This document shows, piece after piece, positions 24,598 through 56,181 of a stretch of 56,181 nt of DNA. A program made the position numbers and the translations under genes. The stretch lies in IMG/VR virus record IMGVR_UViG_2565956618_000007; one strand, 5' to 3'. A model generated the notes under the pieces. That model was not told the DNA's origin and searched no databases. It saw only the letters and a program-made list of their open reading frames with translations. Source of the stretch: a virus. Taxonomy: Duplodnaviria > Heunggongvirae > Uroviricota > Caudoviricetes. Every line of letters begins with the position of its first letter. The first letter of the stretch is position 1.

Positions 24598-24611
24598 TGA
24601 ATGCCTCCCGG

Positions 24612-24908: not shown

Positions 24909-24917
24909 GCCGCGCCC

Positions 24918-25190: not shown

Positions 25191-25381
25191 TGCGCGTCCT
25201 CCCTGTCAGGGCGGGAGAATTCTATGACGGGCACGTCCGCCGAAAAATGCTGGCTGCAGTACGGGCAGACCAGGGTGACACGTACTGCAGGTATGTGATA
25301 CTTACCGGACATCACGGCGATGGCGCTGTGAAAACGCAGGGCTGTTATATCCCTCTCGCACTGAATACATTTAAATATCAT
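25187..25381 (-). CDS. Small zinc-ribbon protein
   Basis: 64-aa ORF with CxxC…CPYC motifs. Confidence 0.5.
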   Translation of the reverse strand: MIFKCIQCERDITALRFHSAIAVMSGKYHIPAVRVTLVCPYCSQHFSADVPVIEFSRPDREDAQ

Positions 25382-25478
25382 AATTTAATTCTCCTCTGTT
25401 TCCGGCGTGCAGAAGCCCGCGGCGCTGACGCCGGAATAAAAAAGAAAATGTTTTTATTAAATAATTAACGTGGTGTGT

Positions 25479-26009: not shown

Positions 26010-26036
26010 ATTTTATGACTCCTCCTGTTGTGCTGA

Positions 26037-26306
26037 TTACCACAAAGATTCCGGCCACACGACGCGACAGCCGTGCAGTTCGAAAACGCCCTGACGGAAA
26101 TGTCCCCTGTGGTCATGACCGGTATACAGATAACAGGCCTTTCCCTGCTCAAGCATGCGCATGCAATGCGCACTCCGGGAAACGCGGATGACAGGTTTGT
26201 TACCCCTGATGGTGATGCTTTGTACATCCGTGTTCGTCGCCTTAAGCGCCATAATGGCTGACTGCACTTTGCTGATTTGCTGGTTGATACCTGTGGTGGA
26301 TTTCAT
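26037..26306 (-). CDS. Hypothetical early protein (kil-region position)
   Basis: 89-aa ORF between B and gam. Confidence 0.5.
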   Translation of the reverse strand: MKSTTGINQQISKVQSAIMALKATNTDVQSITIRGNKPVIRVSRSAHCMRMLEQGKACYLYTGHDHRGHFRQGVFELHGCRVVWPESLW

Positions 26307-26308
26307 TA

Positions 26309-27475: not shown

Positions 27476-27485
27476 GTTTCCCTCC

Positions 27486-40221: not shown

Positions 40222-41023
40222 ACTGGCGTACTGCATGACGCTTCCCCCGAAGCGGGCAGTCAGTTACCTGAAGTCCAAAGGGTATCAGATTACCTGGGAC
40301 TGGGAAGAAATGTGGCAGGAAGCCCATGCCCGCGCCTTTACCGTCGCTAAAGTGACCCGCCTGGATATTCTGGAAGATATTCGCGGGGCACTGCAGCAGG
40401 CTGTCGATGAAGGAAAAACCGATCGCTGGTTCCGGCAGGAGCTGGAGCCGGTGCTGAAGCGTAAGGGATGGTGGGGACCACGTGACACGACTGACCCGGT
40501 AACGGGTGAGCCGGTCACCATTCAGCAGGGCAGTCCGTGGCGGCTCGATACCATCTTTCGCACCAATATGTCCGTACTCTACAGCGCCGGTCGTTGGGCG
40601 GAACAGATGGAAAACGTCGACGACAGGCCGTACTGGATGTATACCGGCATCAACGACAGCCATACCCGCAGGAGCCATCTGGCGCTGCATGGTCTGGTGC
40701 TGCGCTGGGATGACCCGTTCTGGCAGGCATTTTACCCGCCGAACGGCTGGCGCTGCCGCTGTAGTGTGATTGCCCTGAGTGCGGCGGATGTACGTGCCCG
40801 TGGCCTGAAGGTTATCAGCTCCGGCTCTGCCATGGGCCAGGAACTGAAACTGGTCTCAGAGAAAACCGGCGAAATGCGGAACGTGGCCACCTTTAATACC
40901 GGCACTACGAAGGTGACCACCGACGTCGGCTGGTCTTATGCACCGGGGGCAGCATACCGTCCCGACCTGGCCCGCTATCAGGGTACGCTTCAGCCACTGG
41001 CACAACAGGAACTGAGAGGATAA
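40202..41023 (+). CDS. Head morphogenesis protein (Mu F-like)
   Basis: ATG at 40202 overlapping the portal stop; about 273-aa product with C-terminal …GWRCRCSVIA… region typical of Mu F/SPP1 gp7 family. Confidence 0.75.
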   Translation: MSVTTAELAYCMTLPPKRAVSYLKSKGYQITWDWEEMWQEAHARAFTVAKVTRLDILEDIRGALQQAVDEGKTDRWFRQELEPVLKRKGWWGPRDTTDPVTGEPVTIQQGSPWRLDTIFRTNMSVLYSAGRWAEQMENVDDRPYWMYTGINDSHTRRSHLALHGLVLRWDDPFWQAFYPPNGWRCRCSVIALSAADVRARGLKVISSGSAMGQELKLVSEKTGEMRNVATFNTGTTKVTTDVGWSYAPGAAYRPDLARYQGTLQPLAQQELRG

Positions 41024-41025
41024 CA

Positions 41026-41484
41026 ATGGCTTCCGATAACCTGGTCAGTATCACCATTAACGATAAATCCCTGCGCCGGAGCCTCCGTGCGCTGGATCTG
41101 GCTGCCACAGACCTGGAGCCCGCGATGCGCAAAATCGCCGGAACCCTGCTGGCGGAAACACAGTTTAACTTTCTTGATGAGGGGCGTCCGGGGTGGATGC
41201 CCTCGCTGGCAGCGGAAGAACGTGACGGGCAGACACTGCAGGATACCGGGCGTCTGATGGGGTCAGTATCAACCGACCATGACGACCGGCAGGCTGTTGT
41301 GGGGACCAACGTTGTTTACGGTACCATTCACCAGTTCGGGGGTAAAACGGGGCGTAATGAGTCTGTTGAACTTCCGGCCCGCCCGTTCCTGCCGGTGACG
41401 GGGGATGGAGAACTACAGCCTGAAGTGGTAATCCCCATCCTCGATACCATTGTCCGCCATCTTGAATCAGCGGCCCGTCGCTGA
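41026..41484 (+). CDS. Virion morphogenesis protein (Mu G-like)
   Basis: 152-aa ORF after the F-like gene. Confidence 0.7.
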   Translation: MASDNLVSITINDKSLRRSLRALDLAATDLEPAMRKIAGTLLAETQFNFLDEGRPGWMPSLAAEERDGQTLQDTGRLMGSVSTDHDDRQAVVGTNVVYGTIHQFGGKTGRNESVELPARPFLPVTGDGELQPEVVIPILDTIVRHLESAARR

Positions 41485-41530
41485 GTTTTCTCTCTTCAGG
41501 CGGGTGATTTATCATTGCCAGCGAATGAGG

Positions 41531-41562
41531 GGCTGTATTACCTTTATAAAGGCTTTACAGCC
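41531..41562 (+). promoter_or_regulatory. Inverted repeat GGCTGTA-N18-TACAGCC in the intergenic region upstream of the I-like gene (candidate late-promoter element or weak terminator)
   Basis: 7-bp arms read directly; lies in the only sizeable gap (about 214 bp) within the head operon, where Mu carries its P_I late promoter. Confidence 0.3.
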
Positions 41563-41698
41563 TCTGTTTTATAACCGCTTCCGGTTCACCGCATTGCTTT
41601 CCCTGTCCTTCTCCCCTGATGTTTTCTAAAGCAGATTAAAATCGCCGGGCCTGCATTTCTCACAAACTGTCTCCGACAACATAACGCGGGACAGCAAA

Positions 41699-42814
41699 AT
41701 GTCAGCCATTCACATTTTTAAAGCCGGTACTCATACCGATATGCACGGCAAAAAACTGCCGTTCACGCCAGACGATCTTGCCGCCTGCGTGAAAGCCTAT
41801 GACCCGTCCGTCCATGAAGCACCACTCGTGATTGGTCATCCCAGAACGGAAGACCCGGCGTGGGGCTGGGTGAAAGCCCTGTCGCTCAGCGGCGTCGATC
41901 TGATGGCAGAGCCTGCCCAGCTGGACCCGCAGTTTGCTGAGATGGTCACCAACGGACGATTCAAAAAAGTGTCCGCCTCTTTCTACCTCCCGGATTCACC
42001 GTCCAATCCGAAGCCCGGCGTGCTCTACCTGCGCCATGTGGGCTTTCTCGGGGCACAGCCACCTTCCGTCAAGGGGCTGAAACAGGTGTCCTTCAGTGAG
42101 CAGGAAGAAGGTGTGGTGGAGTTCGCCGACTGGCAGGCCATCACGAATGCCTCCCTGTGGGGAAAGCTGCGCGATTTTCTGATCGCCCGCTTCAGTCTGG
42201 ACGAAGCAGAAAAAGTCCTGCCGGAATGGCAGCTCAACAATCTGCGCGAAGAGGCGTACCGCGACGCACCGTCGCAGGATGCAGCAGGTGCACAATTCAG
42301 TGAGACAGGCCAGGTGCCGTCTTCCGCAAGTAACGAGGAATCATCGATGACAAAAGAAGAGATTGAAGCCCTTCAGGAGGAGAACCGCCGCCTGAAGCAG
42401 CAGGCTGCTGATCGCGATGCGCGTGATGCACAGGCCAGACAGGAGCAACTGCATAAGGACAATGTGGCCTTTGCAGAAAAACTGGTCGCAGAGGGGCGTC
42501 TGGCTCCCCGCGCCTCCTCCGTGGTGGTTGCCCTGCTGGATGCCGTCGCCGGTGGCGACAAGCCGGTGGAGTTTGCTGAGGGGGAAAGCCGCACGCCGCT
42601 GGCCACCGCCTTCCGTTCATTGCTCTCCGACGGGGAGCCGGTGATGAATTTCGCCGAACAGGCCACAAAGGAGCGTGTCGGCGACACGGTGAAGGTGGAT
42701 GTGGCGGAGTTTGCGGAAGCCGATCCTGAGCGTCTGGCCCTGCATCAGAAAGCAGTGGCCCTGTCCAAAAAAGAAGGCATCAGCTATGAGGCTGCTGTCG
42801 CACGCTGCCTGTAA
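41699..42814 (+). CDS. Head maturation protease / scaffold (Mu I-like)
   Basis: 371-aa product with N-terminal protease-like domain and charged, coiled-coil-rich C-terminal scaffold region; precedes the major capsid gene. Confidence 0.75.
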   Translation: MSAIHIFKAGTHTDMHGKKLPFTPDDLAACVKAYDPSVHEAPLVIGHPRTEDPAWGWVKALSLSGVDLMAEPAQLDPQFAEMVTNGRFKKVSASFYLPDSPSNPKPGVLYLRHVGFLGAQPPSVKGLKQVSFSEQEEGVVEFADWQAITNASLWGKLRDFLIARFSLDEAEKVLPEWQLNNLREEAYRDAPSQDAAGAQFSETGQVPSSASNEESSMTKEEIEALQEENRRLKQQAADRDARDAQARQEQLHKDNVAFAEKLVAEGRLAPRASSVVVALLDAVAGGDKPVEFAEGESRTPLATAFRSLLSDGEPVMNFAEQATKERVGDTVKVDVAEFAEADPERLALHQKAVALSKKEGISYEAAVARCL

Positions 42815-42828
42815 TTTAAGGAGAAATC

Positions 42829-43782
42829 ATGTCTGATTACTTAAAAGGTAAACGTGTCGTTGATCCGGTACTGACCAGTATCGCCCGAGGCTATAAAAAT
42901 GCCGCATTCATTGGCGAACGTATTTTCCCCGTCGTGCTGACGGACAAGGAAGGCGTGCGTGTGCCGACCTTCGGGAAAACCGCCTTTGTGGAATATGACA
43001 CTGAGCGTGCCGTCGGGGCGGACAGCAATGTTCTGGTCCGTGAGAAAACCGGCACACTGGATCTGGTGCTGGGTGAACACGATCTGGCAGCACCGGTGGA
43101 TTACCGCGAACAGGCGGAGTCCATGTTTAACGAAGAGAGCAAGGCCATCCGTCGCGCCACGAATGGCGTGAACCTGCGCCGTGAACTTATCGCCGCCCGT
43201 CTGGCTCAGGATCAAAAGGTCTACCGTACCGGGCACGTTAAAAAACTGACAGCCAGTGATCGCTGGGCCGGTGGTAAGGGGGACCCCATCGGGGTGATTG
43301 AAGCCGGTATGGAAGCGGTCCGTACGGCCACGGGGCTGCGTCCTAACCTGATGACCATGGGTGCCGGCGTGATGGCGCTGCTGAAGTTCCATCCGGCACT
43401 TCAGGCTGCCATCGGAGCCAACGAACGCAAGCGCATCACCACAGAAATCCTGCAGGACCTCTTTCAGATCGAAGAGATCGTCATCGGTGCGCCTGTCTCC
43501 CTGCCGTCCATGAAAGCGGCAATGGATAAGGACAGCGTGCCGGCGGATATCTGGGGAGACAACCTGATGCTGCACTATGTCGGCAAACCGCAGCCCGGGG
43601 CGGACAGCGCGGACGAGAACGAGCCGTCCTTCGGCTACACCCTGCGTCGTAAGGGGATGCCTGTTGCTGACAAATACGACGGAGCCGGTGGCAAGGTGAA
43701 GTACTGCCGTTATACCGATATCTACAAAGTCGCCGTGGTTGGTGGCGATGCCGGGTATCTCATCACCGGTATCAGTAAATAA
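42829..43782 (+). CDS. Major capsid protein (Mu T-like)
   Basis: 317-aa ORF with RBS AAGGAGA, directly after the protease/scaffold. Confidence 0.8.
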   Translation: MSDYLKGKRVVDPVLTSIARGYKNAAFIGERIFPVVLTDKEGVRVPTFGKTAFVEYDTERAVGADSNVLVREKTGTLDLVLGEHDLAAPVDYREQAESMFNEESKAIRRATNGVNLRRELIAARLAQDQKVYRTGHVKKLTASDRWAGGKGDPIGVIEAGMEAVRTATGLRPNLMTMGAGVMALLKFHPALQAAIGANERKRITTEILQDLFQIEEIVIGAPVSLPSMKAAMDKDSVPADIWGDNLMLHYVGKPQPGADSADENEPSFGYTLRRKGMPVADKYDGAGGKVKYCRYTDIYKVAVVGGDAGYLITGISK

Positions 43783-43791
43783 GGAGGCGTT

Positions 43792-44130
43792 ATGGGAACC
43801 ACTCAGCAGGTCATTCTGATCACAACCGTAACGGCAGGGGCCGCACTGACACAGCAGCGTTTTGTCGGGGCAGATAATACCCCCTGTAAAGCCGGTGCCG
43901 CAGCGCTCGGGGTTGCCGAAGTGGATGCTGTTACCGGCGACAGCACGCCGGTGAGCGTTCTGGGCATTATTGCTGTCGAGGCCGGGGCCGCTGTCAGCCG
44001 TGGTGTGGCTGTTCAGTCAGATGCTCAGGCCAGAGCCGTGCCGCAGTCCGGCGACGGTAAATCCTGTGGTATTGCACTTGATGAAGCCGGGGGTGAAGGC
44101 GACGTCATTCGTATCCTGCGCGGGGTGTGA
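43792..44130 (+). CDS. Small head-associated hypothetical protein
   Basis: 112-aa Gly/Ala/Val-rich ORF with RBS AAGGAGG. Confidence 0.55.
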   Translation: MGTTQQVILITTVTAGAALTQQRFVGADNTPCKAGAAALGVAEVDAVTGDSTPVSVLGIIAVEAGAAVSRGVAVQSDAQARAVPQSGDGKSCGIALDEAGGEGDVIRILRGV

Positions 44131-44131
44131 C

Positions 44132-44578
44132 ATGTACTGCACCCTGGAGGATTTGCTTGCGCAGGTGCCGGAGCGGACGCTTATCGAACTCACCAGTGAA
44201 GAGATGGACTTCGACTCGCCTGCAACAGTGAATACCCGTGTGGTGGACAGCTGTATCCGCTATGCCGACGAGCTGATTGATGCCCATCTGCGCGGACGCT
44301 ATATCCTGCCACTGGCAGAGATACCGACTGTTCTGCGGGACATTGCCATCACGCTGGTCCGTTACCGGCTCTACGCCCGCCGCCCGGAAGGTGACCTCCC
44401 GGATACGGTGAAGGATGACCACAAAGAAGCGCTGCGGCAACTCAGGGAGTTACGTGATAACAGGCTCACGCTGGGGCTGCCGTCCACTCAGAAAGATGTG
44501 CCTGAGCCTGGCGAGTTTCGTGTACGCAGTCGCCCGGCCACTTTCGGCGGTCGTGACGGTTTACTGGAGAAATACTGA
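44132..44578 (+). CDS. Mu gp36-like protein (DUF1320)
   Basis: 148-aa product from ATG at 44132, just after the upstream stop. Confidence 0.6.
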   Translation: MYCTLEDLLAQVPERTLIELTSEEMDFDSPATVNTRVVDSCIRYADELIDAHLRGRYILPLAEIPTVLRDIAITLVRYRLYARRPEGDLPDTVKDDHKEALRQLRELRDNRLTLGLPSTQKDVPEPGEFRVRSRPATFGGRDGLLEKY

Positions 44579-45042
44579 TGAACGTTCTGCCCGTCCTTGA
44601 TGCGGTACTGGCCCGGTTACGCGAGAAGCTGCCGCAACTGCAGGTGGAGTACTTCCCGGAGAAACCGGCTGAATATCGCCTGAACCATCCGGTTGGCGCG
44701 TTGCTGTTGAGCTATGCCGGTTCGCGCTTTGACAGGCCGGATGATACCGGTGCGGTGATCCAGTCTCAGACTATCCAGCTCTGCGTCACGGTGGTCTTCC
44801 GCCAGCTCAACGGTAAAAAAGGGGCGATTAATGTCCTGGATGCTGTCCGCCGCATTCTCGGTGGCCACACCCCGCCCGGCTGCCGCCGCCGTATCTGGCT
44901 GACCCGCGAGGTGTTTATCGGTGAAGTCAGGGGGCTGTGGCAGTACGCCCTCGACTTCGCGACTGAAAGCGTCTTTATCGAAGACAGCGATTTACCGTCC
45001 GGCCCGCTGTTAACCGAAGTGAACTATGAGGAAAGCGAGTGA
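44578..45042 (+). CDS. Mu gp37-like protein (DUF1834)
   Basis: 154-aa ORF with overlapping stop/start. Confidence 0.6.
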   Translation: MNVLPVLDAVLARLREKLPQLQVEYFPEKPAEYRLNHPVGALLLSYAGSRFDRPDDTGAVIQSQTIQLCVTVVFRQLNGKKGAINVLDAVRRILGGHTPPGCRRRIWLTREVFIGEVRGLWQYALDFATESVFIEDSDLPSGPLLTEVNYEESE

Positions 45043-45293
45043 TGAAAGAATACCGCTATTCCGGCCCGGCCAGCGGCGTCACGCTGTCGGACGGAACCGA
45101 AATCCTGCTCTGGCCGGGGAAGACGGTTTCCCTGCCGGAGGAGCATGACTACGTGAAGGTACTGGTGGCGCTGAAACATCTGACGCCGGTACCTGAAGAG
45201 ACTAAACCCGCCGGCACACCGGCTGTGCAGTCACCAAAGCGCAGAAGCAGCAGTGACAGCGAAGTGAAAACGGAGGACACCCATGGCAGCTAA
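45039..45293 (+). CDS. Small hypothetical protein (Mu gp38 position)
   Basis: 84-aa ORF between gp37-like and the sheath gene. Confidence 0.55.
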   Translation: MMKEYRYSGPASGVTLSDGTEILLWPGKTVSLPEEHDYVKVLVALKHLTPVPEETKPAGTPAVQSPKRRSSSDSEVKTEDTHGS

Positions 45294-46710
45294 CTATCTG
45301 CATGGTCCCGAAACCATTGAGGTGGAAAACGGTGCCCGCCCGGTTAAAACGGTGAAATCTGCCGTTATTGGCCTGATTGGTACCGCCCCGATGGGGGATG
45401 TCAATACGCTGGTACAGTGCCTGTCTGAGAAAGACGCAGCGGCATTTGGCAGCCAGTTCACCGGCTTTACCATTCCGCAGGCGCTGGATGCGATTTATGA
45501 CCATGGTGCAGGCACCGTTCTGGTCATTAACGTCCTCGACCCGGCGAAACATAAAACGGCGATCGAGGATGAGGTGGTTACCTTTGACAAATCGACAGGG
45601 CAGGCCAGACTGGCGCATCCGGTTGTCGCTAATGTGGTGGTGAAAAACAGTGAAGGCAGCACCACCCACACGGCGAACACGGACTACCGTGTTGATGCGC
45701 AGGCGGGTGTGCTCACGAACCTGGGCAAGGCTATTGAGGCCGGTGGCAGCGTGAAGGTGAGCTATGAGTACGCGGACCCGTCGAAGGTGACTGCGGCGGA
45801 CATCATCGGCGGGGTGAACAGCGCCGGAAACCGAACCGGCATGAAGCTGCTTAACGACAGCTTCAACCTGTACGGCTATTTCGCCAAAATTCTGATTGCG
45901 CCGGTGTTCTGCACCCAGAAGAGTGTCGCAGTTGAGCTTATCGCCATGGCAGAGAAGCTGGGCGCGGTAACCTACATTGATGCGCCTGTCGGTACCACCT
46001 TTGCACAGGCTCTGGCAGGTCGTGGCCCGGAAGGCACCATCAACTTCAATACCAGCTCCGACCGCGTCCGTCTGTGCTATCCGCATGTGAAGGTATATGA
46101 CCCGGTGACAAACACAGAGCGTCTGGAGCCGCTCAGCCAGCGTGCAGCAGGTCTGCGTGCCAGAGTCGATCTGGACAAGGGCTACTGGTGGTCATCCTCC
46201 AATCAGGAGATTCTGGGGATCACCGGCGTGGAGCGCCAGCTGTCCGCGATGATTGATGACCCGCAGAGTGAGGTGAACCTGCTTAACGAACAGGGGATCA
46301 CCACGGTATTCAGCAGTTACGGCAGCGGCCTTCGTCTGTGGGGTAACCGGACGGCAGCATGGCCAACGGTCACCCATATGCGTAACTTTGAGAACGTTCG
46401 CCGCACCGGTGATGTGATCAACGAGTCCATTCGTTATTTCAGCCAGCAGTACATCGACATGCCGATTACTCAGGCGCTGATTGATGCACTGACGGAGTCG
46501 GTCAACGCCTACGGTCGCAAAATGACTGGTGATGGTGCGGTACTGGGCTTCCGTTGCTGGTTTGATCCGGCCCGCAATCCGGAGACGGAGCTGGCCGCCG
46601 GGCACCTGTTGCTGAGCTACAAATATACGCCACCACCGCCGCTGGAGCGACTGACGTTTGAGACTGAGATCACCTCGGAATACCTGTTAACCCTGAAAGG
46701 GGGCAACTGA
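45283..46710 (+). CDS. Contractile tail sheath protein (Mu L-like)
   Basis: 475-aa ORF followed by the tube gene. Confidence 0.8.
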   Translation: MAANYLHGPETIEVENGARPVKTVKSAVIGLIGTAPMGDVNTLVQCLSEKDAAAFGSQFTGFTIPQALDAIYDHGAGTVLVINVLDPAKHKTAIEDEVVTFDKSTGQARLAHPVVANVVVKNSEGSTTHTANTDYRVDAQAGVLTNLGKAIEAGGSVKVSYEYADPSKVTAADIIGGVNSAGNRTGMKLLNDSFNLYGYFAKILIAPVFCTQKSVAVELIAMAEKLGAVTYIDAPVGTTFAQALAGRGPEGTINFNTSSDRVRLCYPHVKVYDPVTNTERLEPLSQRAAGLRARVDLDKGYWWSSSNQEILGITGVERQLSAMIDDPQSEVNLLNEQGITTVFSSYGSGLRLWGNRTAAWPTVTHMRNFENVRRTGDVINESIRYFSQQYIDMPITQALIDALTESVNAYGRKMTGDGAVLGFRCWFDPARNPETELAAGHLLLSYKYTPPPPLERLTFETEITSEYLLTLKGGN

Positions 46711-47231
46711 TGTCAAAGATTGAGATAAACCGCATCACGAATGCCAACATCTATCTGGATGGTACTAACCTGCTGGGACGGGCTGAGGAAGTTAAACTCC
46801 CCGATGTCTCCATGATTATGCAGGAACACAAGGCGCTGGGGATGGTGGGTAAGGTGGAACTCCCGGCTGGTTTTGACAAACTGGAAGGCGAAATCAAATG
46901 GAACAGCTTTTACCGCGATGCGATGCTGTCTGCCGCGAACCCGTACAGGTCGCTGGCACTGCAGTGTCGTTCCAGCGTCCAGCGCTACAGCTCGCAGGGG
47001 CTGATTGACGAAATCCCGCTGGTCACCTTCCTGACGATTATGTTCAAGAAGAACCCGCTGGGGACGTTCAAACAGCACGAGAACGCCGAGTTCTCCAGTA
47101 GCTTCACCTGCACGTATATCAGACAGGTACTGGATGGTGAAGAGCTGCTGCAACTGGACTATCTGGCCAACATCTTCCGGGTCGGCGGTGTTGATCAACT
47201 GACTGACTACCGTATCAATATCGGGGGCTGA
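46710..47231 (+). CDS. Tail tube protein (Mu M / P2 FII-like)
   Basis: 173-aa ORF directly after the sheath. Confidence 0.8.
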   Translation: MSKIEINRITNANIYLDGTNLLGRAEEVKLPDVSMIMQEHKALGMVGKVELPAGFDKLEGEIKWNSFYRDAMLSAANPYRSLALQCRSSVQRYSSQGLIDEIPLVTFLTIMFKKNPLGTFKQHENAEFSSSFTCTYIRQVLDGEELLQLDYLANIFRVGGVDQLTDYRINIGG

Positions 47232-47281
47232 CGGTGAGTGTTGAACTGACGGATAAAGGAGGACGATGTGCGGCACTGGGC

Positions 47282-47515
47282 ATGTCAAATGGTACGTGGT
47301 TTACCCTCCTTGATATTCCGGGGGTGGAAACCCTTTTTAATACCCGTAAAACCAATGACCCGATTGACTGCACACGTTCAAAGGCCCGCAAACTGGCGGA
47401 TTTGATTGAAGCATGGGAGCCTCCCGACCACTGGTTCTCCGGCATCGGCAAATCTGAGGGAAAGACGCTTCTCATCGCTTTCCTGCGTAACTGCAAGGGG
47501 TTTCGCACTTGCTGA
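47282..47515 (+). CDS. Small hypothetical protein
   Basis: 77-aa product from internal Met with RBS AAAGGAGGA upstream. Confidence 0.45.
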   Translation: MSNGTWFTLLDIPGVETLFNTRKTNDPIDCTRSKARKLADLIEAWEPPDHWFSGIGKSEGKTLLIAFLRNCKGFRTC

Positions 47516-47612
47516 CATCACAGGGGCTCCGGCCCCTTCTTCTTAATCTCCTTTAATATCCGTCACGCGCTTCTCCCGACATACTGCCCTGAACTTACAC
47601 AGGAGCACAATC

Positions 47613-47948
47613 ATGTCACAGACCCCATCCGATACTTTTAAATTGTCTTATCCCTTCACCACTGCTGCAGGTACCAGAATTGAGCTGGTTGAACTGAAAC
47701 GCCTGACGGTAAAAGACCTGAAGCAGGTGCGCAAAATCAGCAAAAACCCGGCAGACTGGGACGAACCGCTGATTGCCCGCAGTACTGGTCTTCTCCCGGA
47801 AGATCTCGACAATATGGATCTGGCTGATTACCTGCAGTTACAGAAACGATTTCAGCTCATCACGGGGATGGGTGAGAGCAACCAGGGCGCTGACGCAGGC
47901 GCAGGGGCTGCTGGCGAGATGGTTCCGGTTTCAGCCGGGGGAGATTGA
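47613..47948 (+). CDS. Tail assembly chaperone (zero-frame product)
   Basis: 111-aa acidic ORF with RBS CAGGAG, between tube and tape measure. Confidence 0.65.
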   Translation: MSQTPSDTFKLSYPFTTAAGTRIELVELKRLTVKDLKQVRKISKNPADWDEPLIARSTGLLPEDLDNMDLADYLQLQKRFQLITGMGESNQGADAGAGAAGEMVPVSAGGD

Positions 47949-48030
47949 TGCCCTCGATACTGACGATCTGGAGATGTGGCTGGAGCAGGCTGAAGAGCAA
48001 ATAAAAAGCGAGTACGGCGACAAATCATAG
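47613..48030 (+). other. Putative frameshift-extended tail assembly chaperone (+1 frame continuation ending at 48030)
   Basis: A second ORF overlaps the chaperone 3' end in the +1 frame and encodes an acidic tail (…QPGEIDALDTDDLEMWLEQAEEQIKSEYGDKS); overlap includes a G-run (CCGGGGGAG). Confidence 0.35.
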
Positions 48031-48105
48031 TACAGACAGCCGCCAGTAGCGGCTGTTCTGCGTTATCCCCTCACGTCTTTTCACCTTCCCCGGAGGTTAA
48101 CCACT

Positions 48106-51057
48106 ATGTCGGGACAGTTTTCAGTCGGCGTTGTTATCGGCGGGATGATTGGCAGCACATTCCGTTCTGCAATGAGCGGTACCCGCCGTGCGCTTGATTC
48201 CCTGAGCGATACCTCACGCCGCCTGCAGGAACGTCAGAACGCTTTAACCCGTGCAACAGAACGTTATGGTCAACTGGGTTCTTCCCGGATGCAGCATCTC
48301 AACAGCGAGCTGCTGCGGGTAAGCCGCACCATGGAGCAAATTGAGCGCCAGCAGCGCCGTCTGTCAGCGGCATCCGCTACCAGTGATGCGCTGAAAGCTA
48401 ACCGCATGGCGCTGTATGGTCAGGGGATTGAAGCGTATGGCATGGCACAGACTGTTTATCATACGGTTTCCCCTGCCGTTCAGCAGTCCATGTCTTTTCA
48501 GGACAAAATGATTGATATGTCGATCACCGCAAAATATGACAATAAAACGCGGGATGCACTTGCCGGACAGATAAAAGGCTGGGCGCTTAAATACAATCAG
48601 TATCAGGATGAGCTGCAGGAGGCGGTGGGTTCACTCATCAGCGACAATATTGATAATGTGTCAGATATCGGTTTTCTGATGCCGGATATTGCCCGCGCGG
48701 CAACGGCAACACGCACGTCTGCTCAGGACTGGGCAAAAGTGGCCGCAGTCTGGCAAAACTCCCTGAAAGGTGCGGCCAGAGATTTTGGTGCCGTTCAGAA
48801 TATTATGGCTTATGCCGGTGACCAGGGGTCATTTGAAATCCCGGATCAGGTCAAGTGGATGCAGTCCCTGGCCCCAATGATGGCGGGTATTGCCAGTGGA
48901 AAAGAGGCTGTTGCTGAAATCGGGGCCAGTCTCCAGATAGCAAAAATCGGTGCAGGTTCCACCGACGAAGCAGCCAATAATTTTAAAAACTTTCTTACCA
49001 AAATTTTTGCCCGCGATACTCAGAAACAGTTTGCTGATCTGGGTATTGATTTGCAGGGATCTATTGCGAGTTATAAAGCTGCGGGGATCTCTCCGATTGA
49101 AGGGATGTTGAGTGTTATAGAACGTTACCTCAATGCCAAAAGCCCCGAAGCGCTGGCCGGCTTCAAATCAGCCATGAAAATAAAGAATGATACGGCAAGA
49201 GATGAGGCACTTCAGGCTCTGGCGAAAAACTTTGGTCTGGGCGATATGTTCGCGGATATGCAGGTCATGGCATTTATCCGCCCGATGCTGGCCAACATGG
49301 ACAGATATCGAGAGATCCGTGCCGGTGCTCTCAGGGCTGCGGATAACGATTTGCTTGCCAGTGCTTATGATCAGCGGCTGAAATCTCCCCTTGAAGCCAC
49401 TAAAACACTTATGGTCAGCAGTCGCGATCTGGCAATTACGCTGGGCGATCAATTAGCTCCATCTTTTATTTCTTTGACTCAGGAACTGCTTCCACTCATT
49501 CAGGGGGCAAAACACTGGGTAGCGACTCACCCGCAATTTGTCAGTGGGGCTTTTAAGCTCATCAGTGCGCTCCTTGCGATTAAGATAGCGACTGTTGGTC
49601 TCAAACTGGGGCTGAATCTCCTTATTTCCCCCTTTGTAAGTGTCTGGAAAAATGCTGTTTTACTTCGGGCCAACTGGCTTCGTCTGTCGCTCGCACTGGG
49701 GCAAGGCGGTAAGCTCCGCTGGCTGGTGACCGGATTTAGCGCCGTCGCCAGAGGAGCCAGAACACTGAGTGGCGTGCTCTCCGGGGGGCTGGTTCGCGGA
49801 ATTATGCTCGCCGGACGTGCTGTTCTCTGGATTGGACGTGCGCTGATGATGAATCCCATCGGTCTCGTTATCACCGCTGTCGCGGCAGCAGCTTACCTTA
49901 TCTACCGCAACTGGGGGGCAGTCAGTGGCTGGTTTAAACAGCGCTGGGCAGACATTCAGGAAGCCTTTAACGGCGGCATTGTGGGAATTGGTAAGTTACT
50001 GATTAACTGGTCGCCGGCAGGCCTGCTCTATAAAGCCTTTGCGGCTGCGCTGAAATATTTCGGCGTTGCTCTGCCGGCAAAGTTCACCGACTTCGGTGGC
50101 CATCTTATCGACGGTCTGATTAACGGTATCAAAAACAAATGGGGGTCGCTCAAATCCAGTGTAACCGGAATGGGTGACAGCATCAGTAGCTGGTTTAAAC
50201 AGTGCTGGGCTGACATTCAGGAAGCCTTTAACGGCGGTATCGCGGGAACTGGTAAGCTGCTGATTAACTGGTCGCCGGCAGGTCTGCTCTATAAAGCCTT
50301 TGCAGCTGCGCTGAAATATCTTGGTGTTGATCTGCCGGCAAAGTTCACCGACTTCGGTGGCCATCTTATCGACGGTCTGATTAACGGTATCAAAAACAAA
50401 TGGGGGTCGCTCAAATCCAGTGTAACCGGAATGGGTGACAGCATCAGTGGCTGGTTCAGTGAAAAGCTGGGTATTCATTCGCCGAGCCGCGTGTTTATGG
50501 GCTTTGGTGACAATATCGCGCAGGGGGCCGCCATTGGCCTGCAGCGGACCACTCCGCTTGCAGCTCTGGCCGGGCAGCGAATGGCCAGTGAACTGCTCCC
50601 CAGAATGCCCGTGAGCATTCAGGGGCCAGAAATACGGGATAACACTTCAGGTGTTCGCTTCAGTATGCCGTTGCCCGATATCAACGGGTTTATGTCGTCT
50701 GCTAAAAATGCGATCGGAGCCGTAATCAATAGTTTGTCTTCCATGCCCGCTATCCCGCTCTCCACCCGGACATCGATTTTACCAGGGCAACGTCTGGCAA
50801 ATGAGATGACACCGGATGTTCCCCGTATCCCCTCGCCTGAAATCATGGCTGCCGGATATTCAGGCCGTGGTGCAGCTGCAACCGGCGGTGGAACGTCTGG
50901 TGGTATCCAGGTCAGCTTTAATCCTCAGTTTTTCCTCAATGGCAGGGAAACCACAGCGCCTGCAGGACTGACTGGTGCTCTGAATATGAGTCTGCATGAG
51001 CTGGAAAAAATGCTGGAGCGTCTGCTGGCTCAGAAACAACGTAAGGAGTACCGCTGA
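48106..51057 (+). CDS. Tail tape measure protein
   Basis: 983-aa product with RBS GGAGG, alpha-helical N-terminus, hydrophobic central segments; contains a tandem 87-codon duplication. Confidence 0.85.
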   Translation: MSGQFSVGVVIGGMIGSTFRSAMSGTRRALDSLSDTSRRLQERQNALTRATERYGQLGSSRMQHLNSELLRVSRTMEQIERQQRRLSAASATSDALKANRMALYGQGIEAYGMAQTVYHTVSPAVQQSMSFQDKMIDMSITAKYDNKTRDALAGQIKGWALKYNQYQDELQEAVGSLISDNIDNVSDIGFLMPDIARAATATRTSAQDWAKVAAVWQNSLKGAARDFGAVQNIMAYAGDQGSFEIPDQVKWMQSLAPMMAGIASGKEAVAEIGASLQIAKIGAGSTDEAANNFKNFLTKIFARDTQKQFADLGIDLQGSIASYKAAGISPIEGMLSVIERYLNAKSPEALAGFKSAMKIKNDTARDEALQALAKNFGLGDMFADMQVMAFIRPMLANMDRYREIRAGALRAADNDLLASAYDQRLKSPLEATKTLMVSSRDLAITLGDQLAPSFISLTQELLPLIQGAKHWVATHPQFVSGAFKLISALLAIKIATVGLKLGLNLLISPFVSVWKNAVLLRANWLRLSLALGQGGKLRWLVTGFSAVARGARTLSGVLSGGLVRGIMLAGRAVLWIGRALMMNPIGLVITAVAAAAYLIYRNWGAVSGWFKQRWADIQEAFNGGIVGIGKLLINWSPAGLLYKAFAAALKYFGVALPAKFTDFGGHLIDGLINGIKNKWGSLKSSVTGMGDSISSWFKQCWADIQEAFNGGIAGTGKLLINWSPAGLLYKAFAAALKYLGVDLPAKFTDFGGHLIDGLINGIKNKWGSLKSSVTGMGDSISGWFSEKLGIHSPSRVFMGFGDNIAQGAAIGLQRTTPLAALAGQRMASELLPRMPVSIQGPEIRDNTSGVRFSMPLPDINGFMSSAKNAIGAVINSLSSMPAIPLSTRTSILPGQRLANEMTPDVPRIPSPEIMAAGYSGRGAAATGGGTSGGIQVSFNPQFFLNGRETTAPAGLTGALNMSLHELEKMLERLLAQKQRKEYR
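49930..50451 (+). repeat. Tandem in-frame duplication, 2 x 261 bp (87 codons), inside the tape measure gene
   Basis: Protein residues 609-695 and 696-782 are near-identical (WFKQRWADIQEAFNGGIVGIGKLLINWSPAGLLYKAF… vs WFKQCWADIQEAFNGGIAGTGKLLINWSPAGLLYKAF…). Confidence 0.9.
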
Positions 51058-51941
51058 TGTTTGCCGTACTGGGTGATATTGAGTTTGAGCTGATTACCTA
51101 CTGGGACGGCTTCGAGGCCACGTTCGGCGTCGATTATGCGGAGCATGCCCGCATCGGGGGTAAGCCTGGCCTGCAGTTCGTCGGCGACAGGCTGGACGAA
51201 ATCCAGATAACTCTGGTTTTCCATCAGCATTATTGTGTACCCGATGTGGAGCTGGCGAGACTGCGAACAGCCATGAAAGCCCATCAGGCACTGGCGCTGG
51301 TCTTCGGCAACGGTGACTATCGCGGCTGGTTCGTGATTACCGATGTGACTGCAACCAGCGAGCAGACTGACAGTACCGGCAACGTGCTGGCTGTCAGTGC
51401 CACCGTGTCTCTCTGGGAATACACCGGTGACCCGAAAAATACTCTGCAACCACCGGCAATACGCACGAAGCTCCCGGGTGTCGGGGCGGTCTCCGGTGCC
51501 ATACCTTCACCTTCAGGGGTGGCGCAGTTCATCCGCAACGGCGTCAACTATGCGAAACAGGCGCAGTCTGTACTCCAGACCACTATCAGCGCCGTTCGGG
51601 TGACACAGAAAATGAAGGATAACCCCGTTGTCGCACTGACCCGTGTGCCGGGGCTGATGAGCGGACTGGGTAATATCTCCGGGGCTCTGGGGAAAAGTGT
51701 TCCGGCGTTTAACGCACTCTCTGAATCCATGCCCGATGCCATCAGTCTGGCCAGAACAGCCAGCGAAGCAGTCACGTATGTACAGCAGGCACAGTCTGCG
51801 CTGAGTGGTGTGGACAAAAGAAATATTGCAGGTGCTCTGGATACCGTTTCCGGGCAGCTTAACGCCGCCGGCACAGCATTCAACCGCATGTCTCCGGGAT
51901 TAAGTGCAATGGCCGCCAGAATACTGACGAGGAGTGTGTGA
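51057..51941 (+). CDS. Tail protein (Mu P/gp43-like, DNA-circularisation-protein family)
   Basis: 294-aa ORF directly after the tape measure. Confidence 0.6.
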   Translation: MFAVLGDIEFELITYWDGFEATFGVDYAEHARIGGKPGLQFVGDRLDEIQITLVFHQHYCVPDVELARLRTAMKAHQALALVFGNGDYRGWFVITDVTATSEQTDSTGNVLAVSATVSLWEYTGDPKNTLQPPAIRTKLPGVGAVSGAIPSPSGVAQFIRNGVNYAKQAQSVLQTTISAVRVTQKMKDNPVVALTRVPGLMSGLGNISGALGKSVPAFNALSESMPDAISLARTASEAVTYVQQAQSALSGVDKRNIAGALDTVSGQLNAAGTAFNRMSPGLSAMAARILTRSV

Positions 51942-52153
51942 TGTTTCTTGAACATGTTACCCGTGACGGAGAGCGCTGGGATTCGCTGGCATGGCAGTAC
52001 TACGGCGACCCGCTGGGCTATCCCCGGATTATTGCCGCCAATCCGCACGTGGCCATCACGCCGGTGCTGCCCTCCGGGCTGTTGTTACTGATCCCGGTGA
52101 TTGAGGCTGAAGAAGCCCGTACAGAAGAGGATATTGCCCCATGGCTGAGATAA
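51938..52153 (+). CDS. Tail protein X-like (LysM-like)
   Basis: 71-aa ORF overlapping neighbours; size and position as P2 gpX. Confidence 0.6.
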   Translation: MMFLEHVTRDGERWDSLAWQYYGDPLGYPRIIAANPHVAITPVLPSGLLLLIPVIEAEEARTEEDIAPWLR

Positions 52154-53313
52154 ACAGCACTGCGCAAGTCACATCAGCGTTAACCGGCGTCAGCGATGTG
52201 CTGACACCGGTGTTCACTTTGTGGTATCTGCAGAAAAACATCACCTCTGATATCGCGCCTTATGTCACCCGTGTGACCTGGAGCGATAACATCAAAAATG
52301 AGTCCGATACCATTGAGGTGGAGCTGGACGACACCGATGGCCGCTGGCTGGATAAATGGTATCCGGGCAAGGGTGACACGCTGACGCTGAAAATGGGCTA
52401 TCAGGGCGAGAAGCTGCTGTCCTGCGGTACGTTCTCTATAGACGAGATCGAAGTGAGTTCGCCCGCTTCCGTTGTTTCTATCCGTGGGGTGGCCACCTCG
52501 GTTAACAGTGCCCTGCGGACTAAAACCAGTCGTGGTTTTGAGAACACCACGCTGGCAGCTGTTGCGGGGCGGATTGCCAGAAAGCACCGACTGAAACTGG
52601 TGGGCAGCATTGAGTCCATCAGAATCGACCGGGTGACCCAGTATGCTGAAACCGACGTGGGTTTTCTGCGCCGGCTGGCCAGCGAGTATGGTTATGCAGT
52701 GAAAGTGGTCAGTGACCAGCTGATTTTTTCTCATCTGGCCACACTGCGCAGTCAGGAGCCGGTCAGGCAGTTAAAACCGCAGGATGTGGCCCGCTTTTCC
52801 CTGCGTGACACCATCAACCGGGTCTATAAATCTGCAAAGGTAAAACACCAGAAAAGCAGCAGTAAAAAACTGATCGTCTACGAAGCTGATGGTGGTACCC
52901 GTGAAAGCGACAAAAAGCTCAAAGGTGGTAAGGTTACCAGCGCTGACTCACTTAAAGTTAACAGCCGCGTCAGCGACCCGGACAGTGCCCGGATTAAAGC
53001 GGATTCAGCACTGGCCAGACATAACGAATACCAGCAGAACGGCTCCCTGACGCTGACGGGAACACCTCAACTGACAGCAGGCAACAAAATTGAACTGGTG
53101 GGTTTTGGGCAGTTATCCGGGCCATGGCTCATAACCACTGCCCTCCATGCGTTTGAGCGTAACAGCGGCTACACCACAGAGCTGGAAGTGGCACGGGGGC
53201 CGGTCACACAGGGCAAGGCGAAGAAAGGTAAAAAAACCGGCAAAACCCGGACGCTGACCATCTATAAACCGGACGGCAGCACGTCCACAGTAATAAGAGA
53301 GAAGAAAAAATGA
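52141..53313 (+). CDS. Baseplate hub / late control D-like tail protein
   Basis: 390-aa ORF preceding the V-like spike gene. Confidence 0.7.
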   Translation: MAEINSTAQVTSALTGVSDVLTPVFTLWYLQKNITSDIAPYVTRVTWSDNIKNESDTIEVELDDTDGRWLDKWYPGKGDTLTLKMGYQGEKLLSCGTFSIDEIEVSSPASVVSIRGVATSVNSALRTKTSRGFENTTLAAVAGRIARKHRLKLVGSIESIRIDRVTQYAETDVGFLRRLASEYGYAVKVVSDQLIFSHLATLRSQEPVRQLKPQDVARFSLRDTINRVYKSAKVKHQKSSSKKLIVYEADGGTRESDKKLKGGKVTSADSLKVNSRVSDPDSARIKADSALARHNEYQQNGSLTLTGTPQLTAGNKIELVGFGQLSGPWLITTALHAFERNSGYTTELEVARGPVTQGKAKKGKKTGKTRTLTIYKPDGSTSTVIREKKK

Positions 53314-53837
53314 CTGGTGTCACTCGTCAGGTCGGTACGGTCAGTGCCGTTGATGCCGACAGGGTTCAGGCCCGCGTTCGTCTGCCTGAATGCGATAACC
53401 TGCGCACAAACTGGCTTAACGTGCTGCAGCGCAATACCCAGGATAACAAAGATTACTGGCTCCCTGACGTGGGGGAGCAGGTTGAGGTGCTGCTCGATGC
53501 CAACGGCGAGGATGGTGTTATTCTGGGCGCGGTGTATTCAGACGTCGATAAACCACCGTTCAGTGATAAAAACGTCCGGGGCACGAAGTACGCTGATGGC
53601 GCGGAGTTCAGTTATAACCGCGCGACCCATACGCTGACGGTCAGAGGAGGTATTGAGCGTATCGTGGTGGAGGTTGCCGCCGATATCTCACTGGAAGGGA
53701 AAAGCATTGACCTCACGGGAGTTACCACAATCAACGGCAACGCGACACTCAACGGTGATCTGGAAATCAACGGAAGCGCCCATGCAACGGGTGACATATT
53801 TGCCGATGGTCAGAACTCTAATCACCATTCCCATTGA
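53310..53837 (+). CDS. Baseplate spike protein (gpV-like)
   Basis: 175-aa product with N-terminal OB-fold-like region and C-terminal repeats (…TINGNATLNGDLEINGSAHATGD…). Confidence 0.75.
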   Translation: MTGVTRQVGTVSAVDADRVQARVRLPECDNLRTNWLNVLQRNTQDNKDYWLPDVGEQVEVLLDANGEDGVILGAVYSDVDKPPFSDKNVRGTKYADGAEFSYNRATHTLTVRGGIERIVVEVAADISLEGKSIDLTGVTTINGNATLNGDLEINGSAHATGDIFADGQNSNHHSH

Positions 53838-53893
53838 ACCTTCTTAAACGCCTTTAATATCGGCGCTTACTTCCCGGGGGCAATACTGCCTCC

Positions 53894-54241
53894 ATGAAAA
53901 CGACCTCAGTATTCTGGCAACCAGCTCTGCAGGCTTCCGGCGAAATCGTCAGGGGGCTGGATGATATCCGGCAGTCCATCCAAATCATCCTGCGGACTCC
54001 CCGCGGCAGCGACCCGCATCGCCCGGAGTTCGGCAGCAATCTGCACCTTTATATCGACTGGCCTGTCGACCGGGCCATTCCGCATGTGGTTCGCGAATCC
54101 GTCGATGCCATCCGGCGCTGGGAGCCCCGCTGCCAGCTTATGTCAGTTAAACCCGCCGTCGACGGCGAACATCTTACGCTCCGGGTGAGCTGGAAAGGCT
54201 CAGACGGACAGACCCGGACTCAGGAGCTGCTATGGCGCTGA
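53894..54241 (+). CDS. Baseplate wedge protein (gpW / gp25-like)
   Basis: 115-aa ORF immediately upstream of the J-like gene. Confidence 0.75.
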   Translation: MKTTSVFWQPALQASGEIVRGLDDIRQSIQIILRTPRGSDPHRPEFGSNLHLYIDWPVDRAIPHVVRESVDAIRRWEPRCQLMSVKPAVDGEHLTLRVSWKGSDGQTRTQELLWR

Positions 54242-55335
54242 CAGAACCCGATTTTATTGAACGCGATGCCGACAAAATCACGGCAGAAATGATTGCGAAG
54301 TATGAAGCGGATACCGGCAAAACGCTGTACCCGGCACAGGCAGAGCGTCTGCTGATTGATCTGTGGGCCTATCGCGAAATGCTGGTCAGGGTTGCGGTAC
54401 AGGAGGCAGCAAAGCAGAATCTGGTCGCCTTTGCCCGTGAGCCGATGATTGATTACCTCGGTGAACTGGTCGGTGTATACCGTCTTGCCGCGCAGCCTGC
54501 CACTACCACGCTCCAGTTCTCCGTAGATGAGGCACTGGCCATTGATGTGCTGATCCCGGCAGGCACCCGCGTCAGCGCTTCCGACAGCGTTATTTTTGCC
54601 ACCGATACAGATGTGGTACTGAAGGCCGGATTGCTGCTGGTCAATGTCACGTCCACCTGTACCGAACCCGGTACCGCTGGTAACGGCTGGCAACCTGCGC
54701 AGGTCAGTCAGTTACTCGATGAGATTGATAACGTCGACCTGCTGGTGAGCAATCTGACGGCCAGTTCCGGCGGTTCAGAACAGGAAGACGATGACAGGCT
54801 CCGGGAGCGTATCAGGCTGGCCCCGGAGTCATTCACCAATGCCGGAAGCCGTGGCGCATACCGCTTTCATGCCATGCAGGCCCATCCCAACATTGTCGAT
54901 GTTGCTGTGCTTTCCCCGGTTCCCGGGACCGTAGATCTGTATCCGCTGCTCAGTACCGGTCTGCCGGACGGCGGTGTTCTCACGCTGGTAGAGAGTTTCT
55001 GCTCTGATGAGAAAGTCAGGCCACTCACTGATACAGTGCGGGCTAAAACACCAGTGAAGGTGGATTACACCATTGAAGCCAGGATTACGATCTATCGTGA
55101 TCAGGATGCCAGGTCTGTAAAAGATGCCGCTAACAGCGCCATACAGAACTGGGTGGCATCACGTGCCGCCACGCTGGGGCGTGATATTGTCCCCAGCCAG
55201 ATTATCAGTGCATTGTCCGTTTCCGGGGTGTACCAGGTTGAACTGGTGACACCGGCACTGAGGGTGGTGGCAGAAAACGAATGGGCAAACTGTACGGCGA
55301 TCACACTTAACATGAGTGGAGTGTCTGATGACTGA
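54232..55335 (+). CDS. Baseplate protein J-like
   Basis: 367-aa ORF between W-like and I-like genes. Confidence 0.75.
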   Translation: MALTEPDFIERDADKITAEMIAKYEADTGKTLYPAQAERLLIDLWAYREMLVRVAVQEAAKQNLVAFAREPMIDYLGELVGVYRLAAQPATTTLQFSVDEALAIDVLIPAGTRVSASDSVIFATDTDVVLKAGLLLVNVTSTCTEPGTAGNGWQPAQVSQLLDEIDNVDLLVSNLTASSGGSEQEDDDRLRERIRLAPESFTNAGSRGAYRFHAMQAHPNIVDVAVLSPVPGTVDLYPLLSTGLPDGGVLTLVESFCSDEKVRPLTDTVRAKTPVKVDYTIEARITIYRDQDARSVKDAANSAIQNWVASRAATLGRDIVPSQIISALSVSGVYQVELVTPALRVVAENEWANCTAITLNMSGVSDD

Positions 55336-55906
55336 GCCATTACAACTCCCGCCACCGCTTGAGGGTGATATCAGTCTCAGGACGCTGGGAAGACTGGCAG
55401 GACGGCTGGATAACATCGACCTGAGCGTACTGATGGTCTTTCTCGTCGATATCGTCGACAGTTCCGCGCTGCCATGGCTGGGCGAGCAGTTCTCACTGTC
55501 TGGCGATGGCTGGGAGCTGGCGGAATCGGACGATGTTCGCCGCATGCTTATAAAAGCAGCCATCGAACTGCACCGGTATAAAGGGACGCCGTGGTCAATC
55601 CGGGAAGTTATCCGCCGTTTTGGCTTTGGTGAAGTGGATCTGATTGAAGGCACAGGTCGTCTCAGTTACGACGGCAATCGCAGCTATAACGGACTGTTTG
55701 TTCATGGAGATGCAGCCGCCTGGGCAGTTTATCGCGTTATTCTGAAACAGCCCATTACTAACGATCAGGCCGCGATGCTGCGTCAGACGCTGGCTGCATT
55801 TGCACCGGCCCGCTGCCATCTGGCCAGCCTGGAGTATCAGTCTGTGGCCATTCGCTATAACAATACCGCCATCCATGATGGCAGTTATAACCACGGGAGC
55901 AGTTGA
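55328..55906 (+). CDS. Tail protein I-like
   Basis: 192-aa product from MTEPLQLPP overlapping the J-like stop. Confidence 0.7.
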   Translation: MTEPLQLPPPLEGDISLRTLGRLAGRLDNIDLSVLMVFLVDIVDSSALPWLGEQFSLSGDGWELAESDDVRRMLIKAAIELHRYKGTPWSIREVIRRFGFGEVDLIEGTGRLSYDGNRSYNGLFVHGDAAAWAVYRVILKQPITNDQAAMLRQTLAAFAPARCHLASLEYQSVAIRYNNTAIHDGSYNHGSS

Positions 55907-55908
55907 TT

Positions 55909-56181
55909 ATGGGAAACCTGAATGAAACAGAAAAGTGGGAAGAAAATATCTATCAACTGGAGACATCAGATCCGGTTCTGGGTGGTGCAGACGGGATATC
56001 AAATCGAGCCCCCCGGCAACTGGCAAACAGGACGAAATGGCTGAAGAAGAAAACGGAGGAAGCCGCACAGTCACTGGCTGAACACGTACGTTCCCGTAAC
56101 CACCCGGACGCGACACTGACAGCTAAGGGGTTCACCCAACTGAGCAGTGCCACCAACAGCACCTCTGAAACGCTGGCCGCC
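55909..56181 (+). CDS. Tail fibre protein (P2 H-like), N-terminal 91 codons only; truncated by window end
   Basis: ATG at 55909 two nt after the I-like stop; N-terminus MGNLNETEKWEENIYQLETSDPVLGG… is a conserved tail-fibre attachment motif; the ORF runs off the window. Confidence 0.75.
   Translation, partial: MGNLNETEKWEENIYQLETSDPVLGGADGISNRAPRQLANRTKWLKKKTEEAAQSLAEHVRSRNHPDATLTAKGFTQLSSATNSTSETLAA

Follow-up and report, generated by a model that had tools for sequence, protein, structure and literature searches.

The DNA examined here is a stretch of 56,181 nucleotides from a virus of the class Caudoviricetes (IMG/VR record IMGVR_UViG_2565956618_000007), called the window below. Its tail tape measure protein (TMP) gene carries two units of 87 codons, head to tail and in frame. 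An original prediction made from the letters of the window had taken the pair for a recent tandem duplication that lengthened the tail relative to a single-copy ancestor. Our analysis supports, with good confidence, a longer history: a real two-copy array in the ruler gene that started from a single-copy ancestor, was duplicated, diverged, and was later reshaped by crossover and conversion between the copies. Tandem-repeat length variation in TMPs is already known, and the allele of the window is common and long-standing rather than a recent or unusual event.

The identity of the gene was established by domain and family searches. The predicted protein of 983 amino acids (aa) matched PF10145 (PhageMin_Tail, TP901 family) with 74 bits against a cutoff of 33.2 at aa 159-340, and phrog_28, 'tail length tape measure protein', with E = 8.6e-135; a match to phrog_5690 was also found. 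RefSeq homologues of the 983-aa protein carry the name 'phage tail tape measure protein'. The order of the neighbouring genes, i.e. sheath, tube, gpE-like gene with its E' frame, TMP, gpU, gpX and gpD, is that expected around a TMP gene. Thus PF10145, phrog_28 and the position of the gene all confirm that the repeat sits in a tape measure gene. The Pfam search of the TMP gave no domain besides PF10145, which lies outside the repeat, and a sequence search against all Protein Data Bank (PDB) chains gave no match. A single-sequence AlphaFold2 model of aa 560-830 was nearly all helix with a mean confidence score (pLDDT) of only 43.

The array itself was delimited with Tandem Repeats Finder (TRF), which reported one tandem array at 49922-50456 with a period of 261, 2.0 copies, 94% matches, 0% indels and a score of 965. 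The segment 49930-50451 is exactly 2 x 261 bp and starts on a codon boundary of the plus-strand open reading frame (ORF) 48106-51057, (49930-48106) mod 3 being 0. The copies are identical at 246 of 261 nt (94.3%) and differ at 15 nt and 6 of 87 aa without indels, a similarity far above chance. The in-frame 261-bp tandem pair was hence correctly described. A 13-bp partial third copy follows directly after the array, and 13-bp motifs mark both of its borders and, as a variant, the internal junction (Table 1). A motif like the border motif also flanks the single unit of the single-copy relatives L005 and L011 with 11 of 13 bases matching; the motif is probably the microhomology where the first duplication arose. 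The differences between the copies are not evenly spread: 14 of the 15 lie within unit nt 1-140, leaving a run of 118 identical nt. In a simulation with 15 randomly placed differences a run of this length had P = 0.0012, and the tract in copy 2 is likely to have been left by gene conversion or crossover.

A repeat of 261 bp is longer than short reads, and the record of Escherichia phage PhiKM (PQ738613) annotates its TMP coding sequence (CDS) as 'disrupted by sequencing gap', with a run of 100 N at L001 13435-13534, exactly at the repeat; because the N run sits there, the copy number of PhiKM cannot be read. A false duplication by the assembler, with one copy or another number in the true array, was therefore considered. 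The TMP gene is present in 636 of 5426 complete E. coli genomes at 704 loci, some genomes having more than one such prophage. The full 2952-bp gene is covered by a single alignment at 99.4-99.9% identity in dozens of these genomes. When 100 nt across the border of copy 1 and copy 2 were used as a query, with a threshold that excludes half-matches, the unit-unit junction was found 780 times, in 572 of the 636 carrier genomes. Furthermore, duplicate assemblies of one strain agree on the array (SCU-101, p11A/p11B). The same gene structure in many independently finished genomes contradicts an artefact, and the 15 differences between the copies are not what a false duplication would produce. We thus consider the artefact, which the original prediction had raised as its own alternative, hardly credible. 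The warning that the repeat is a hazard for assembly was well founded, as is seen from the gap in PhiKM and from the annotation of three-copy genes by PGAP, the annotation pipeline of NCBI.

The latter concerns the three-unit TMP genes of ZH063 (NZ_CP014522, L006 385-3597) and E92 (NZ_CP119734, L009 385-3597), which RefSeq/PGAP labels as pseudogenes, either 'incomplete; missing C-terminus' or split in two. Both translate as an uninterrupted ORF of 1070 codons without indels relative to the intact p11A gene, and many other three-copy genomes also show two features under the TMP gene. The additional repeat unit seems to have misled the annotation in these cases. Six unit-unit junctions occur in one complete genome, though no single array exceeds four units; presumably two or three members of this prophage family reside there. 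The TMP is also encoded at 98-99% identity on low-coverage (1-7x) contigs of Arthrobacter sp. GMC3 and Y81 (L012, L032, L034), with two units in L012. These contigs are almost certainly E. coli contamination of the respective assemblies.

The number of units turned out to be variable. Homologous proteins form a length series of 896, 983 and 1070 aa, corresponding to one, two and three units, and with a query made of the flanks only the flank-to-flank spans in complete genomes were 1674, 1935, 2196 and 2457 bp, i.e. one to four units. Intact annotated CDS exist for one copy (EcPF7, NZ_CP054232, 2691 nt, 896 aa), three copies (p11A, NZ_CP049077, 3213 nt, 1070 aa) and four copies (LH50-c, NZ_CP100500, 3474 nt, 1157 aa); strain N61 (NZ_CM165883) is an example with two. 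In an evenly spaced sample, one, two, three and four units were present in 2, 41, 11 and 1 of 55 full-length hits, respectively, frequencies that are rough since the genome collection is clonally biased with many ST131 strains and the numbers come partly from a 60-row sample. Two copies are clearly the commonest state among carriers, and it is this copy number that the window has. A synthetic query of seven units retrieved two four-copy genomes, 16 closely related single-copy genomes and many three-copy genomes, and no allele above four units among the complete E. coli genomes. The flanks of these alleles are nearly identical. Compared with the window, the one-copy EcPF7 allele has 3 differences in the 2208 nt of the left flank and 13 in the 2106 nt of the right flank, and the three-copy p11A allele has 5 and 28, respectively. 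Therefore the copy number changed within one lineage. Alleles with one, two, three and four units, together with the crossover mosaics described next, lend strong support to the expectation that the repeat is recombinationally unstable.

To read the units as DNA we defined type a as copy 1 of the window and type b as the terminal copy of ST131-type alleles; the two differ at 20 diagnostic sites. The single unit of EcPF7 reads aaaaaaaaabbbbbbbbbab, which fits the deletion product of a crossover that joined an a copy to a b copy. The middle unit of the three-copy p11A allele reads bbbbbbabaaaaaaaaaaaa and fits an expansion from two to three copies by unequal crossover. Copy 1 of ST131 (abbbbbbbaaaaaaaaaaaa) and copy 2 of the window (bbbbbbbbbbbbbbaaaaab) fit crossover or conversion. 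In exact runs tests the block patterns at the diagnostic sites had P of ~1e-3 to 1e-4, with P = 0.0013 for copy 2 of the window. At the protein level the b-type residues I60V and S72E are retained in the last copy of most two-copy alleles and are missing from that of the window, a rare variant found in 2 of ~70 cases. As far as can be judged from these patterns, repeated rounds of unequal crossover and gene conversion appear to have left the block-wise a/b mosaics.

The comparison of units also bears on the age of the array. Units a and b differ by a synonymous divergence (dS) of 0.17-0.26 with a ratio of nonsynonymous to synonymous divergence (dN/dS) of 0.16-0.21 (Nei-Gojobori), and both copies are maintained as coding sequence under purifying selection. 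For the whole TMP gene, dS between the window and the ST131 allele is 0.077, and between the repeat unit and the single units of more distant relatives with an 821-aa TMP it is 0.44-0.55. In the outgroup units about half of the states agree with a and about half with b, and the two kinds are intermixed from site to site instead of forming blocks. Because the outgroup states split about evenly, both copies have diverged since the duplication. The relatives found in 20 other Enterobacterales genomes, with 35-75% protein identity, all have one unit, so that the single-copy ancestor assumed in the original prediction is supported. From these comparisons we infer one duplication in an E. coli-associated lineage, older than the diversification of this prophage group and not recent.

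A recent, strain-specific duplication of a single-copy gene with copies that have barely diverged is accordingly hard to uphold, although it has points in its favour. The copies are 94% identical, with 118 nt free of any difference, the pair is young next to the multiplied modules of other TMP families (35-74% protein identity), and the relatives outside E. coli are single-copy. On the other hand, the two-copy arrangement with the same copy-specific differences occurs in hundreds of complete genomes of diverse strains, the dS between the copy types exceeds that between the window and ST131 alleles, the even split of outgroup states means that both copies have changed since, and the identical tract reflects secondary homogenisation that is not present in most alleles. 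We regard a recent origin as very unlikely. The comparison with related prophages, which had been proposed as a check, thus gave a divided answer: it brought out the variable one to four units and the single-copy outgroups, while the shared junction, the dS values and the up to 20 diagnostic differences show the two-copy state to be widespread and not recent.

The following sequence of events would account for the data. The module would have been single-copy in the ancestor. A single duplication would have followed in the lineage that is widespread in E. coli today; two 13-bp motifs coding for Ser-x-Trp-Phe, one on either side of the module, were probably the sites at which illegitimate recombination or slippage took place. 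The two copies would have diverged into types a and b under purifying selection. Finally, the 261-bp direct repeats would have been a substrate for homologous unequal crossover and gene conversion, which repeatedly gave rise to alleles with one, three and four copies and to patchwork units. The window allele is of a minority kind: copy-1 sequence would have overwritten the 3' part of its copy 2.

What the array might mean for the virion was estimated from the ruler function. Because TMP length sets tail length at 0.15-0.17 nm per residue in the published cases, each 87-residue unit is predicted to add ~13-15 nm of tail. The rings of tail tube and sheath have a rise of ~4 nm; given this value, one unit would equal about three tube and sheath rings. 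The natural alleles with one to four copies would then form a tail-length series of roughly 134, 147, 160 and 174 nm at 0.15 nm per aa, before a correction for the ends. The scale is taken from several phages. In TP901-1 the removal of 347 aa shortened the tail from 118 nm to 65 nm, a loss of 53 nm or 0.153 nm per aa (PMC5099701). For phiCbK 0.15 nm per aa fits (PMC3556154), and the Mu-like myophage KS10 with a TMP of 811 aa and a tail of 140 nm yields ~0.17 nm per aa (PMC2628397). Lambda gpH and T4 gp29 are among the published ruler cases as given in a paper that cites them.

Several points weigh against our reconstruction. The tail-length effect is an extrapolation from other phages. The helical state of the repeat module is backed only by the low-confidence model mentioned above (pLDDT 43). 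Clonal bias and the 60-row sample weaken the copy-number frequencies. An unequal crossover of 261 bp always keeps the frame, and therefore the intact frames of the one- to four-copy alleles alone are no evidence of function. Gene conversion blurs the divergence of the copies, so that the first duplication is not properly datable. Moreover, types a and b could have been born diverged, via recombination between two different phages. In that case the array arose when an a-like and a b-like single-copy phage recombined unequally or illegitimately at the border motif, the divergence pre-dates the duplication, and it tells nothing about age. The strong mosaicism of these prophages, with 53 of the 89 nt differences between the window and ST131 TMP genes in one stretch of 261 bp, the supply of recombination partners (the 704 loci counted above) and the conservation of the border motif in single-copy relatives are all in line with such an origin. 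Yet, the single-copy alleles, when read as DNA, are either a/b crossover products or distant outgroups that mix the states site by site, and an extra, unobserved parent would be needed. A few single units identical to type a do appear in the protein-level table, which holds protein sequence only. We consider recombination between diverged parents unlikely and favor divergence after one duplication.

The stretch that holds the 53 differences lies at 49671-49931 (TMP nt 1566-1826, window against L007) and is the hydrophobic region just upstream of the repeat. Its position indicates a putative recombinational mosaic boundary right beside the repeat.

The module may also have to be seen as a functional domain, whose dosage tunes envelope penetration as an ejected, periplasm-spanning or DNA-conduit part of the protein and not only ruler length. 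In a search with the 87-aa unit, 604 representative protein clusters matched at E <= 1e-3 and 323 still did so at E <= 1e-10; this widely conserved module is always located in the C-terminal half of the TMP, is under purifying selection and directly follows hydrophobic segments at aa 478-508 and 579-600. In TP901-1, hydrophobic regions and terminal repeats of the TMP affect infectivity as well as length (PMC5099701). On the other hand, there is no sequence sign of a catalytic or binding domain, the only Pfam match (PF10145) being elsewhere in the protein, and the copies vary freely between one and four, with different periods in other lineages, which is how a spacer would behave. A role in dosage is also compatible with the ruler effect and does not exclude it. 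We hold such a role to be possible and rather improbable. A further idea, which we put forward as a speculation with little chance of being right, is that gain and loss of units by RecA in lysogens makes the array a fast-switching 'tail-length locus'. Phage subpopulations would then differ in steps of ~13 nm, and the polymorphism of one to four copies would be kept by selection through the host envelope, i.e. the thickness of capsule or O-antigen, instead of neutral drift in length.

If the prediction of tail length holds, the alleles represent a natural series of TMPs with 896, 983, 1070 and 1157 aa in almost identical backgrounds. Carriers make up ~12% of complete E. coli genomes, ST131 included. 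With such a series the ruler rule could be calibrated for a Mu-like tail of the contractile type, and tail length could be probed against host range. For practical work, the repeat is a place where short-read assemblies of phages break, PhiKM being an example, and the pseudogene labels that PGAP puts on intact three-copy genes could make prophages look defective.

The features of the TMP gene and of its surroundings are compiled in Table 1.

Table 1. Features located in the window, with position 1 as its first nucleotide.
Feature	Position	Strand	Basis or remark
Tail tape measure protein (TMP) gene, 983 aa, 2952 bp	48106-51057	+	ORF, Pfam, PHROG, RefSeq homologues
Hydrophobic segment 1 of TMP, aa 478-508	49537-49629	+	Kyte-Doolittle mean >= 1.6 over 19 residues
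Hydrophobic segment 2 of TMP, aa 579-600	49840-49905	+	Kyte-Doolittle; directly upstream of repeat
Repeat unit copy 1, 87 codons	49930-50190	+	pure a sequence type
Repeat unit copy 2, 87 codons	50191-50451	+	mosaic: b at diagnostic sites unit nt 13-140, a at sites 156-246, b at site 259
118-nt identical tract	50331-50448 (copy 2) = 50070-50187 (copy 1)	+	comparison of copies
13-bp border motif TCAGTGGCTGGTT, encodes Ser-Gly-Trp-Phe	49922-49934 and 50444-50456	+	left and right array borders
Border motif variant TCAGTAGCTGGTT	50183-50195	+	internal junction of two units
Tail sheath gene (contractile tail)	45283-46710	+	PF04984, PF17482; phrog_23
Tail tube gene	46710-47231	+	PF04985, E = 2.9e-53
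gpE-type tail assembly chaperone gene, upstream of TMP gene	47613-47948	+	PF10109 Phage_TAC_7, E = 5.5e-21
gpE' extension frame, +1 (= -2) relative to gpE	47890-48030	+	'GpE family phage tail protein' at matching position in L002; frame read from sequence
gpU-, gpX- and gpD-like tail and baseplate hub genes, downstream of TMP gene	51057-53313	+	PF06995, PF05489, PF05954
rve-domain transposase	27486-29255	-	domain match
AAA_22 ATPase	26309-27514	-	domain match
Tyrosine integrase with Arm DNA-binding domain	188-1483	-	left element
835-aa protein with Rv2179c-like 3'-5' exonuclease domain	1827-4334	-	left element
DUF7380/DUF4209 protein	8982-10769	-	left element
DUF968/HNH-like protein	12375-13463		left element

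A second segment of the TMP gene is variable in length. At 50569-50781 the window encodes ~71-75 aa that two relatives with an 821-aa TMP lack, namely L005 and Klebsiella phage KP12. The segment is bounded by the similar motifs AGQRMASELLPRMPVSIQGPEI and PGQRLANEMTPDVPRIPSPEI, 71 aa apart, as might result from a duplication of older date or from an indel mediated by microhomology. Off-diagonal hits were absent from a self-BLASTP of the TMP, which in the form used is uninformative on older internal repeats. On the minus strand a 160-aa ORF with an ATG start runs antisense through the repeat (49996-50478); it showed no sign of being a gene, and no homology or family search was made with it.

The element that carries the gene was assigned by comparison with PhiKM, whose taxonomy is Bcepmuvirus. 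The parts 22498-28113 and 38662-56181 of the window share 92-98.5% nucleotide identity with this phage, and a range of 96.5-98% was also obtained in the comparison. The transposase and ATPase genes are on the minus strand, the late genes on the plus strand. Because of the identity with PhiKM, the rve transposase with its AAA ATPase, and the sheath and tube genes, the element is classified by sequence as a BcepMu-like transposable prophage (genus Bcepmuvirus) with a contractile tail. The gpE' frame (+1/-2) differs from the -1 that is usual for P2 or lambda; a -2 shift was reported for Mu by Xu et al., as cited in the KS10 paper (PMC2628397). The left part of the window, up to ~20 kb, belongs to a different integrative element or prophage, and similarity to the compared part of PhiKM is detectable from 22498 onward. 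Judging from this layout, the Mu-like prophage appears to adjoin the left element or to lie within it.

Literature searches on PhiKM and on Mu-like prophages of ST131 yielded nothing relevant to this TMP gene, and a paper on Vibrio phage 24/X29, considered as a parallel, does not concern TMP duplication. Among the closest known counterparts, PhiKM and the RefSeq E. coli prophage TMPs are the same gene with 95-99.9% nucleotide identity and the same unit and borders; they differ in copy number and in the a/b mosaic, with one unit in WP_001485752.1, two in WP_000016538.1, three in WP_021551891.1 and four in WP_180200967.1. At a greater distance, 24 of the 91 full-length representatives among the best matches listed have two to four near-complete copies of the module, mostly with a period of 76 aa, in some cases of 87 or 113-114 aa; identity between the copies of one protein is 35-74%. 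In TMPs of other lineages (e.g. P0122, P0123, P0132) the same module is in tandem in the same part of the protein with periods of 76, 83 or 113-114 aa instead of 87. The different periods and the low identity therefore point to older, independent duplications with different borders in those lineages.

Histories of duplication have been reconstructed from variable tandem repeats in TMPs, which are gained and lost among related phages (Belcaid, Bergeron & Poisson 2011, PMC3271669). The array of the window resembles these repeats in being made of in-frame TMP units whose number varies among related phages or prophages, here from one to four. In contrast, the units in that study have 11 aa (or an 18-residue period) with W/F markers, while the 87 aa or 261 bp found here are long enough for homologous crossover of the RecA type; the copies are also few, and crossover mosaics are visible. 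Within the gene, TRF applied to 47000-54000 found a single period of 261 nt (87 aa), and 87 is no multiple of 11; no formal search was made for a degenerate 11-aa period in the protein sequence.

With respect to length control, the experimental precedents are lambda gpH (Katsura & Hendrix 1984) and TP901-1, where in-frame changes of TMP length alter the tail proportionally by ~0.15 nm per residue. A TMP duplication in TP901-1 did not lower the titre (Mahony et al. 2016, PMC5099701), and for that phage it was proposed that repeats may ease the duplication and deletion of domains and so give flexibility in tail length (PMC5099701). According to Abuladze et al. (1994), as cited in a later paper, T4 gp29 shows that the ruler principle holds for contractile tails too. 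T4 has a contractile tail like that encoded here, its gp29 has no detectable sequence relationship to the TMP of the window, and its variants were engineered. The lambda and TP901-1 variants likewise are laboratory constructs, in non-contractile phages, whereas the alleles described here form a natural series in a contractile Mu-like prophage.

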